A DNA stretch of 52,894 nt, the filler included, from Streblomastix strix (taxonomy: Eukaryota), in the NCBI GenBank assembly GCA_008636045.1. It is 3 parts of 3 records of this genome, joined end to end, with 100 filler letters (N's around TTAATTAATTAA, not from the genome) between each part and the next. Parts side by side here need not be neighbours in the genome. Positions count along the whole stretch, not along the records: positions 1 to 17,575 come from SNRW01000694.1; 2 more parts are not named here. One strand, written 5' to 3'. Of this stretch, positions 7,628 to 14,628 are shown one piece after another. Both the position numbers and the translations under genes were made by a program. The notes under the pieces are model-generated. The model did not search any database, was not told the DNA's origin, and worked only from the letters and a program-made list of their open reading frames with translations. Position 1 is the stretch's first letter, and each line of letters opens with the position of its first letter.

Positions 7628-10600
7628 ATGAAGATAATTGTAAAGTCAATCACTGGGCTATCATATGATGTTGAAGTCGATCCAAGAGCAACTATTGAAG
7701 ATTTGAAGTAAAAATTCGAGGAATAACATGGATTTGCAGCAGCTGACCTGAATTTGATTCTTAATAATCAGATTCAAGATGATTCAAAGAATCTCTCAGA
7801 AATAAACTTTGTATGACTAATATTTATAATCAAATTTATTATAATAATCTTAATTTTCATATATATTTTTCATATTTATTTTTTCCCCACTTTTTTTACT
7901 TTATTCAGGGAAAGAATACATACTTCATATTTTCAACAAAGATTAAACCTTTTAGTTTGAATAATTAAGCATAATAATCACAAACATTCAACCCACCCAC
8001 GAATGATATTTATTCAGATCTGGAAGAATAGCTCATTTAACCACTATTATTTGAATGCAATGCTAATAATCATCAGATATTGCAGCAAAGTGATGTTGCA
8101 TCTATTGGATAAGGCTAAATAGAAAGAGATATTATGCCTCCACCAAAGGAGAAATGCAAATCAAACACATTACATCTATTGAAGAAAGGTAAATAAGGTA
8201 ATTCAAAAAAGAATTTAAAGGAAGGAGGTAAAAGAAAGTATTTAACTGAAGGAGGTAAAAGCGTGTTAGTGGGCATGGGATATGATGGTGATATTGCTGA
8301 AGCAGCTCTTGTTATTACTGAAGGTAATATAAATGCAGCTATTGAATTTTTGGAAAATTAAAATAATGATACTCAATAATTAATAGGAAAAGATAATGCA
8401 ATTAAAAGAAAAAGAGAAGAATAAGAATAAGATTAGAATCAAGATTATGAAATAGGAAATTGTATAATTGATGACTATGATGGAGATACAAATGATACTG
8501 ATCTAATTTAATCTGATCAAAACTCCGATGATGAAATGTTGGAAGATATTAGAAGGATGAATTTAGGATTGAAAATTGGATATGATTTGAATGAAAAATA
8601 ATTTGATAGAAGAAATATTGAATAATCCAACAACAGCTTCAATAATAACAACAATAATAATATAAATAATTTAAATAATAATAATATAAATAATATAAAT
8701 AACAGGAAAAGAGCAAGATTGGATTAAGATGAATGTGAAAATGAAGATGAAACATCTCCAAATAATAATCATATTAATATAGATAGTTTTGAAAATCAGG
8801 ATTAAATTGATGCAAATACACAAGATTCTAAATAAGGAGAAATAAAATAAGCTAATGAATCTACTCCTTCATAATTAACTCATTAATATTCATTAAGAAG
8901 TTAATCTTCTTCTTAAATATCTAATAAATCTTAATTTGGACAAATTAATCAAACTTCAACTACCAAATAATAAGAATAGCTTAATAAAAATCGTAAAAAG
9001 CGAAATATTAATCACTCAATGAATGATAAACAATCAAGAAATTAATAATATATAACTAAATCTAAAGTAAATTAGCTGATTTCAATGGGAATTGATAGTG
9101 ATATAGCACATGCGGCGCTCATTAAAGCAAAAGGAAAACTTAATGAGGCCGTATCATATCTTTTTGATGAAGATAATGAAGATGACGATGTTTAAGAAGT
9201 TGATATATCTGAATATCATAATAGAATGATTAAAGATGATTAAACAAATAATTAAGGGGAAGCAAATGGCTATTTGGACTCTGAATCAATTTAAAATAAT
9301 TAAATTTAGAGATAGTAATAAATATCTGTAGGGTCTTAAATGGAAAAAGAATATGAATAAGAATTTAATTATAAAGAAAAGGAATAAGAATAAGAGATTA
9401 AAGAAATAGAAGAAATGGAAGATTTAATTATATTCAATATTTCAAATCCTAATTAATATGGAGAAAGTTTCAATTTATTCAAAATATCAGAATAATAAAG
9501 TTAGAAAAAGATAATTTTGAATAATAGTTTATTAAGAAGTGAAACTCAGTAGGGAAAGATTATTGGATAAAATCTAAGATTGAGTTTTAATGAAGCTAAA
9601 TGTATTATTTTATAGATGGATAACTAAAATGAATTAAAAGGGAATATTTAATTAATTGGAGGAATTGCAGAAGTAATATTTATTAATGAAAGAGGAATAA
9701 TTCTTGATAACTTCTAATCATAAGGCATAAAAATATTATATTTCTTAGTTGCTTAAAGATTTGATGATTAACATTAACAATTTGAATTGACAATTGGAAA
9801 TAAAATCGAGATGAAAAACACAGTTAGTTTTGATGATGCAATGGAAGTGAATGTAATTGCACATAATATATATGTTGGTGGACAAGTGTCTGCATAAGAT
9901 GGAGTATTGAATATCAAAACGGGGAATAGCAAAGCAATGAAGTAATATAATGGAATGTATAAAGTTATATCAGATGGAAATTAGAATGAAAGAAATTCAA
10001 TTGTAATTCAACACATGACAAATATTAAAGCAAAAAGAGTATATTTACAAACAACTGAGAAGAAAACTTCAATTGAAATTAATGGGAATATGAATAGTAC
10101 AAATGGTAATTTAGCATATGAATCTGCGAATGATATAATTATTGGAGGAAAGGTTATATTATCTTCAGAGGGCAAAGTTGTTGTATTAAAACCAACGAGG
10201 AATATATTTGTCGGATAATCGACTATTTAAGGGAATTTGAATGTAAAAATTGATGCAAATGGTGAAACAAGAATAACTGGAGGATCGAGTATAAAATCAG
10301 GAGGAAATGTGATTATTAAAACGAATTATTTACAATTGAATAGCATGAAAACAATGAATGATGAAGAATTATCATAAATTACTGATCCTAATATCAAGTT
10401 ATAACATTTATAGTAGAGTTCATATGATGCATAGAGTTCAGTTATTCTTGCTGGTGGGCATATCACTATAATTACTCCCGAGAAAGGAAAAGGAACTACA
10501 GGATTTATTGACCTCATGAACCATCAGTTGATTTCAAATAGAGTTATTTTTCTTTGGGGAAAAACCTTACGCAACTTTTGTGCATTTGAAAGATAAGAAG

Positions 10601-13600: not shown

Positions 13601-14628
13601 CAACATTAACTATTGATAATAAAATATTTACTGAAAAAGGAAGAAATGAAATGTTGTAAAATATTAATACTGAAAGTATAATAAACAAAATCAAAGAAAT
13701 AGGAATTGATTAAGTATAGCAAAGAACTGGTGTGAATATATAAAAGCTTTTAGATGGTAATGTTGTTGGATTTGCTAAAGACTTGGCAAAAGAATAAATA
13801 TATAAAAAGATTGGCATCAATGTAGATAAGTTAATTGATAATGATATTCCTGGGTTTATTAAAGATTAAATTTAATAACAGATGGGTATTGATATCCAAA
13901 AGTTAATGGATGGAGATGCATAAGGATTTGCAAAAGATTTTTCTAAGGATTATATATTGAAGAAAACAGGCGTAGATGTAAATAAGTTAATTGATGGTAA
14001 TATTACTGGCTTTGCATTAGATAGGATGAAAGAATAAATATATAATTAAGCAGGAATCGATATATAAAAGCTAATAGATAAAGATTTATCAGGTTTCATT
14101 AGTGATTAATTTCAGCATCATCTGGGTATTGATATATAAAAGCTTATTGAAGGTGATACGACTGGATTTGTTAAAGACTTTGCCAAAGATCAAATATAGA
14201 AGAGAATAGATATGGATGTAGGAAAACTAATTAATGGTGATTTAATTGGTTTTATTGATGATTAATTAAGCAAATTGGAAATTGATGCACAACTTTAATA
14301 AGATATTGATGTATCAAGCCTCAATAATGATTAATTATTAGGATGGTTAGCTTTTAATCCATAAGCAGCAATGAGATTAGATGTTTAGGATCTTGCCAGT
14401 AAATAAATGACATAATAATAATAATTATTTGAAAATATTTAGAATAATTCGATTAATACATTTGGTGATATAAATGAGATGAATAAAGTGTCAAATGAAA
14501 TATCCAGTTAATATTGGGATCAAAATATGGAATAAATGGGATTAATAATTGAAGAAGAAGTTGATGAAGGAGAATCGCATTAAGATATATCACAGCAGTA
14601 GCCTATGATATCAGAGCCTGACAATTGA
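7628..14628 (+). CDS. ~2300 aa fusion: ubiquitin-like domain + 2 UBA domains + TpsA/filamentous haemagglutinin (CdiA-like) beta-helix + C-terminal tandem repeats
   Basis: Exon 1 (7628-7810) MKIIVKSITGLSYDVEVDPRATIEDLKQKFEE... is Ubl. Intron 7811-7908 (gtatga...ttcag). Exon 2 (7909-14628) has no in-frame TGA. UBA1 LVGMGYDGDIAEAALVITEGNINAAIEFL (~8266-8352), UBA2 LISMGIDSDIAHAALIKAKGKLNEAVSYL (~9076-9162). TPS-like domain from ~9430, haemagglutinin-type repeats to ~13650. Confidence 0.85.
13726..14262 (+). repeat. Seven 24/28-aa protein repeats, consensus G[IV][DN][IV]xKL[IL]DG[DN]xxGF
   Basis: Units TGVNIQKLLDGNVVGFAKD, IGINVDKLIDNDIPGFIKD, MGIDIQKLMDGDAQGFAKD, TGVDVNKLIDGNITGFALD, AGIDIQKLIDKDLSGFISD, LGIDIQKLIEGDTTGFVKD, IDMDVGKLINGDLIGFIDD; spacing 28,24,28,28,24,28 aa. 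Confidence 0.9.

Follow-up and report, generated by a model that had tools for sequence, protein, structure and literature searches.

Can one protein of a eukaryote consist of ubiquitin-related domains in front and a bacterial haemagglutinin of the TpsA type behind? This question is raised by a gene of the termite-gut oxymonad Streblomastix strix (assembly GCA_008636045.1), which lies at 7628-14628 on the plus strand of a stretch of 52,894 nucleotides, called the window hereafter, made of parts of three records, the first of which (1-17575) comes from SNRW01000694.1. Read under genetic code table 6, the gene encodes a product of 2300 amino acids (aa) in which a ubiquitin-like (Ubl) domain and two UBA domains are followed by about 1415 aa that are, by homology, a chassis of the TpsA/CdiA type, in agreement with the first-pass annotation, which had claimed about 1400 aa with TpsA hallmarks. 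That the gene is real and that this part of it is of bacterial origin is held to be highly probable. The Rickettsiales relatives of the chassis, its paralogue family and the replacement of both the signal peptide and the toxin end are new here; a search of the literature gave no account of this fusion or of any TpsA in a eukaryote, and haemagglutinin is unmentioned in the text and 11 supplements of PMC10703272, while the gene could be listed in the supplementary material published with the S. strix genome.

Gene structure and the ubiquitin-related N-terminus

The single spliced table 6 frame of about 2300 aa that had been proposed was recovered as two exons, 7628-7810 and 7909-14628, separated by a phase 0 intron of 98 nt (7811-7908) of the GT-AG spliceosomal type. 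The intron has its GT donor at 7811 and an AG acceptor ending at 7908, and its base make-up (T 0.54, purine 0.34) differs from that of exon 2, in which purine is 0.59-0.63 from end to end. The plus frame 7783-14628 is open across 2281 codons. Exon 2 contains no in-frame TGA before its TGA stop, whereas its two alternative plus frames contain 54 and 135, and AT-rich non-coding DNA follows the stop. The contig part 1-17575 is free of gaps.

The public model of this gene, KAA6399727.1 (EZS28_004747), is annotated only as hypothetical or as ubiquitin-like domain-containing. It has 1910 aa, of which the last 1670 are identical, and shares the start and the first intron, but it carries two additional introns at about 8323-9066 and 9190-9615 of the window. 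These were rejected as prediction errors, because both are multiples of three in length, purine-rich and devoid of in-frame TGA, and because the second deletes one half of the TPS domain, for which an alignment at 37% with a TPS domain of Acinetobacter was obtained; the first joins two half UBA domains. The apparently false introns hide one UBA domain and half of the TPS domain, and the architecture may have been overlooked for that reason.

Bacterial contamination was also considered and rejected in view of the intron, the host-type neighbours and the use of TAA and TAG for Gln throughout. As many as 78 of the 101 Gln codons in 9616-13650 are TAA or TAG, so that the haemagglutinin part is unreadable by a bacterium. 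Codon usage correlates with that of host genes (r 0.92-0.96), but a value of 0.90 is reached even by a bacterial TpsA that is AT-rich, so the correlation was not used as proof.

Exon 1 contains the ATG and most of the Ubl domain (aa 1-61), which is completed by the initial 12 or so codons of exon 2. It matches Pfam ubiquitin (E 3.6e-9), and its nearest match in the PDB comparison is ubiquitin itself; I44 is retained and the di-Gly is absent. UBA1 at 8266-8352, with an MGY loop, matches Pfam UBA (E 9e-9), and UBA2 at 9067-9186, with an MGI loop, is the better of two stretches that match UBA_7 (E 1.5e-7). All these scores exceed the Pfam cut-offs, as was predicted for a Ubl and two UBA domains. 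A 27-nt tandem duplication occurs at 8208-8261, immediately 5' of UBA1. Between the two UBA domains, 8353-9066 is a low-complexity linker rich in Asn, Gln and acidic residues, which the public model treats as an intron although its composition is that of coding DNA (purine 0.62, a length divisible by three, and no in-frame TGA where the alternative frames have 4 and 23).

The first-pass annotation had compared this arrangement to the Rad23/Dsk2 shuttle factors, and the protein does resemble Rad23, Dsk2 and NUB1 in that it begins with a Ubl lacking di-Gly and has UBA domains after it. However, the Rad23 family TIGR00601 gives 26.5 bits on exon 1 against a cut-off of 207.3 and no match on exon 2, the Pfam scan of the gene's protein found no STI1 or XPC-binding domain, and the UBA domains are confined to the first fifth of the 2300 aa. 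Because of the low TIGR00601 score, the lack of STI1 and XPC-binding domains and the closeness of the Ubl to ubiquitin, the protein is, by these comparisons, not a member of the Rad23/Dsk2 family, and that label was abandoned.

The bacterial-derived chassis and its probable source

The join between the two parts is an acidic linker at 9187-9414, at the place where the bacterial relatives carry a signal peptide, and it is followed at 9415-10257 by the TPS secretion domain with the first beta-helix rungs. The TPS domain is recognised by a purpose-built profile and by its predicted fold, while Pfam leaves it under the threshold (PF05860, 15.4 bits at E 0.018, where 33.5 bits would be required). 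Residues 547-899 reach 84 bits with the purpose-built profile, for which 45 TPS N-termini of bacteria were chosen via a search seeded with the window protein. A tblastn search against plasmids gave 22 records, and all 20 listed align from query residue 6-8; 16 of these lie under haemagglutinin or DUF637 genes and 4 otherwise (3 unannotated), and at the two plasmid loci inspected a TpsB gene stands beside or near the match. AlphaFold2 with the alignment of the 45 N-termini gave a model of 9415-10494 with pLDDT 85.6, which matches FHA (1rwr) with a Foldseek E of 8.8e-10 and a Z of 29.4 (rmsd 2.6 over 269 residues). Next come the secretion domains of EtpA, HMW1, HxuA and haemolysin A, whereas unrelated beta-helices reach Z 18. 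A single-sequence model was poor (pLDDT 36), with FHA ranking first at E 0.18. The long beta-helix that was expected is present where the TpsA part was modelled, over its first 360 aa, and extends over the rest by homology only, and a TPS-capped beta-helix is very probably the fold of the bacterial-derived part. The TPS motifs are worn, NLRL standing for NPNL and NERG for NPNG; the consensus is visible in the alignment. They are worn in the Rickettsiales relatives as well.

Downstream, FHA-1-like beta-helix repeats occupy 10258-11007; they show beta-strand repeats in the models, are shorter than in canonical CdiA/FhaB, and homology to Rickettsiales TpsAs begins in them at aa 972-980. The central block at 11008-11700 is the part of highest conservation (Rickettsiales TpsAs match it at 29-37% identity, with a lowest E of 3e-55) and by its position would be an excursion of the receptor-binding type. 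The FHA-2 region at 11701-13662 comprises a helical insert at about 12670-12882, a Fil_haemagg_2 domain at 12880-13146 (Pfam E 4.2e-10, above cut-off) and the end motif THATIG..NINRDVSK..FTEKGRNEM, which the protein has in common with CdiA-like proteins of Acinetobacter. Every TpsA motif quoted earlier was found in the translation. The toxin-like C-terminus of the bacterial proteins gives way at 13729-14277 to seven helical, amphipathic repeats with a length of 28/24 aa and the pattern GIDIQKLIDGD..GF..D, and an acidic Gln/Asn-rich tail with the stop ends the gene at 14278-14628. No bacterial protein in the set examined reached the inclusion threshold with the repeats, and no credible Pfam or PDB match to them was obtained. 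Matches to Pfam RLIP76, Sigma70_r4_2 and CARDS-D2, and one to PDB 6xi3 with no passing stretch, were judged to be due to chance.

The order of TPS domain, FHA-1-like beta-helix, central excursion and FHA-2 is identical to that of CdiA/FhaB. The differences are that the gene is eukaryotic, spliced and written in table 6, that the protein has no signal peptide, TpsB neighbour, toxin domain or immunity gene, that NPNL/NPNG are worn and the conserved block before FHA-2 is gone, and that Ubl-UBA-UBA stands in front and helical repeats behind.

Among the best matches from outside the oxymonads are P0015 and P0017, encoded by small Rickettsiales metagenome-assembled genomes (isolates Gsp477_bin10 and Roe453_bin92), whose names we take to denote termite-gut material. 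The central block has matches in 14 of the 126 genomes of the family of P0015/P0017, four of them at E<=2.3e-47, and the FHA-2 region in 17 of 400 genomes of the order Rickettsiales, with G001 at the top. A TpsA of genome G033 is colinear with the window protein (29% over 1012 columns, E 7e-108). In an FHA-2 tree of 80 rows, from which seven duplicate rows had first been removed, the window protein forms a clade with P0005 and P0012 (support 99) within an 11-row group that also contains the Rickettsiales proteins (95). The Rickettsiales grouping was retained in a quick mixture-model tree of 24 rows (97), and the same grouping appears in a TPS tree of 55 rows (100, with a long-branch warning). 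Independently of any tree, a block of about 130 aa that scores 86-148 bits in all 13 other TpsAs checked (one being the seed) is missing from the window protein and from 9 of 9 open reading frames (ORFs) of the Rickettsiales group. Thus the three trees, the shared block loss and the G033 alignment uphold the earlier proposal of a horizontally acquired and domesticated TpsA chassis. A Rickettsiales donor of the TpsA part is quite probable on these comparisons, and the direction from bacterium to protist is likely, because as many as 79 of the 126 donor-family genomes encode TPS domains.

The Rickettsiales TpsAs (Gsp477_bin10, Roe453_bin92, G033, G036 and G077) are nearest to the window protein by score, trees and shared deletion, and share the worn TPS motifs. 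In contrast to it, they have a signal-peptide-like start and variable toxin-like C-termini, as read by eye, and the fusion point coincides with the end of the donor signal peptide. The small Rickettsiales genomes G001, G002, G033 and G036 encode several TpsA paralogues that are divergent, vary at the C-terminus and have worn TPS motifs, and their TpsA loci (L003, L004/L037, L005, L034-L036, L038 and L039) have no adjacent TpsB; one Rickettsiales TpsA locus adjoins a ribosomal protein operon. When five genomes were queried with a TpsB protein, two gave a match, but G001, G002 and G033, which are incomplete, did not. According to PMC9352585, FhaB/FhaC were acquired in an ectosymbiotic branch of the Rickettsiales, and PMC11257099 presents small-genome Rickettsiales of lower termites as putative flagellate endosymbionts.

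The chassis also has paralogues. When its C-terminal 784 aa were compared by phmmer with 1.84 billion representatives, 112 matches were obtained, the best four being P0005 (74%) and P0006 (63%), both from S. strix, and P0012 and P0013 (44% and 46% by blastp), so that paralogue identities to the window protein are 44-74%; P0048 is an additional short paralogue piece. P0012 is likely to be from an oxymonad too, because it ends in the same C-terminal helical repeats. A full-length word-based search gave none among 7788 candidates, and no related loci were found in JGI metagenomes or viral contigs, nor in GTDB genomes with an oxymonad-only alignment as the query. The delivery-type parts keep their order across the paralogue pieces, which points, at the level of sequence, to selection beyond a spacer role, and the non-repetitive central block and the FHA-2 insert are the parts best conserved across paralogues and donors.

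That the fusion is young and non-functional, a working TpsA paralogue having been captured by chance behind a Ubl-UBA gene without selection, would suit the transposon-rich region with its tyrosine recombinase and reverse transcriptase remnants and the fact that the N-termini of the paralogues are not seen; however, a frame open over 6.7 kb, a Ubl and both UBA domains above the Pfam cut-offs and near-identical pieces in a second study make this most improbable.

Possible action on bacteria

Neither a signal peptide nor a membrane segment was found in the protein (19-residue hydropathy peaks at 1.31 over the whole protein and at 0.42 within exon 1), and for this reason it is very probably cytosolic. 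No TpsB transporter occurs among the 16 neighbouring frames scanned, and in place of a toxin domain with a downstream immunity gene the C-terminus consists of helical repeats and an acidic tail. In CdiA/FhaB, as described in bioRxiv 2025.06.17.660209, receptor binding is the task of the central excursion, and the C-terminus is delivered through the target membrane after FHA-2 has pierced it.

We propose, at a probability of roughly 0.38, that the protein is a cytosolic, ubiquitin-guided device that would engage the surface of intracellular bacteria. This is favoured because the delivery parts are the best kept, the export signal and the toxin have been lost and cytosolic ubiquitin domains have been gained. 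The UBA domains might bind ubiquitin on or around a bacterium, the retained receptor-binding-type and FHA-2 regions might, by analogy with the bacterial proteins, touch the outer membrane, the amphipathic C-terminal repeats could be cargo or anchor, and the Ubl could recruit proteasome-side machinery or set the turnover of the protein. The stronger version, in which the eukaryote captured the delivery needle of a Rickettsiales symbiont, dropped toxin and export signal, and re-aimed it by ubiquitin readers to attack or manage symbionts from the cytosol, is unlikely to hold as a whole.

The same absence of signal peptide, membrane segment and toxin domain would fit a real fusion in which the filament serves passively in the cytosol as a scaffold or rod, for example of the vanes, with the Ubl and UBA domains setting turnover or tethering ubiquitinated clients and with no action on bacteria. 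Beta-helices are rigid and the export motifs are worn, but a spacer has no obvious need of the best-kept central block and FHA-2 insert, and this explanation is possible though somewhat doubtful.

A third explanation places the protein outside the cell, where, after unconventional export with the Ubl as a Crinkler-type header, it would serve the coat of ectosymbionts as an effector or adhesin. According to PMC5289972, Crinkler-type effectors resemble the window protein in having a eukaryotic Ubl ahead of a bacterial-derived module, with Ubl headers replacing signal peptides; PMC9352585 proposes that FhaB of Deianiraea binds its ciliate host, and PMC2717939 describes many ectosymbionts forming a dense coat on Streblomastix. 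The Ubl does match Pfam Crinkler weakly (E 0.0073), but at 17.5 bits it remains under the cut-off of 24.6, and ubiquitin scores far higher and is its nearest relative. In addition, two UBA domains would be useless extracellularly and no anchor was found in the protein, so that export is decidedly unlikely.

Several points count against the proposal of a bacteria-directed cytosolic device. Delivery by TpsA proteins needs export through TpsB and secretion arrest, and a cytosolic copy has neither, nor does it have the conserved block before FHA-2. The Ubl diverges from ubiquitin around G47-L50 and V70, and the C-terminal repeats match no known function. The alignment of TPS domains that was supplied biases the predicted fold towards that of a TPS domain, the pLDDT being 36 when it is omitted, and long branches are joined in the trees, with warnings in those of the TPS domain and the mixture model. 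The fusion is known from one gene only: the paralogues are all fragmentary with no N-terminus visible in any, and a second Ubl-UBA-TpsA protein was not found, the one hit among 2023 candidates of less than 1050 aa being a piece of the window protein. No transcript, long-read or protein support for the gene was found, and no RNA dataset containing it is listed.

The continuity of the two parts also bears on this. The ORFs of UBA2 (P0011) and of the TpsA part (P0007 and P0008) each lie on a Logan contig of 4666 nt, which is likely to be one contig carrying the junction as built by a second assembler; its unity is deduced from equal size, the sample may be the same as that of the window, and of ten other small ORFs, those of the Ubl exon and UBA1 among them, none is on record. 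Sequencing reads of four runs were compared with 8730-14640. Among the pieces listed, run X1 gave identical ones together with 83-87% pieces of a paralogue, and run X2, from a second study, gave five pieces of 151-158 nt with 1-5 differences and three more at 84-90% from a paralogue. Over 9160-9500, where reads had been called for, no listed piece crosses the UBA2-TPS junction. It could be supposed that the TpsA-derived family is real but was joined to Ubl-UBA-UBA by a chimeric assembly, or that the two parts are expressed separately, since amplified single-cell DNA is generally prone to chimeras, no listed read spans the junction and the fusion was seen once. However, the linker is in frame, free of TGA and coding in its make-up, the contig is gap-free, the second assembly likely carries both sides and the fusion point is the end of the donor signal peptide; a chimera or separate expression is therefore very unlikely.

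Eukaryotes are known to use laterally acquired antibacterial effectors, such as the Dae amidases, and Trichomonas reportedly has a toolkit of them. While these effectors retain the enzyme or toxin, the window protein retains the delivery chassis and the toxin is gone, that is, the usual transfers keep the toxin and here the delivery machine was kept. To our knowledge, TpsA proteins are thought to function only with a partner in the Gram-negative outer membrane, and a maintained eukaryotic family would mean that the chassis can be reused without it. The gene would then represent a bacterial weapon system that was acquired laterally and domesticated, a record of genes passing from a Rickettsiales lineage of which little is known to the nucleus of a termite flagellate, and a candidate molecule for the handling of bacteria by a symbiont-covered, mitochondrion-free protist.

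Other features of the window

Upstream, at 643-1653 on the plus strand, a tyrosine recombinase is encoded (Phage_integrase, E 2.2e-8), and 31277-33652 on the minus strand matches a reverse transcriptase (RVT_1, E 5.8e-4) whose frame is broken; both are likely to be retroelement remnants, presumably of the DIRS type. A vWA-domain gene at 26072-28489 on the minus strand (VWA_2, E 9.5e-14) has a higher G+C of 0.36-0.39 and a Pro/His-rich tail and could be another lateral acquisition. The filler at 17576-17675 and at 35238-35337 consists of two runs of 44 N flanking a 12-nt island. Several related long helical genes, armadillo-like by eye and with no Pfam match, occupy 35082-51711 on the plus strand and 22834-24657 on the minus strand, and one of them contains an extended repeat of the EKEQEQ type near 45.8-47 kb.

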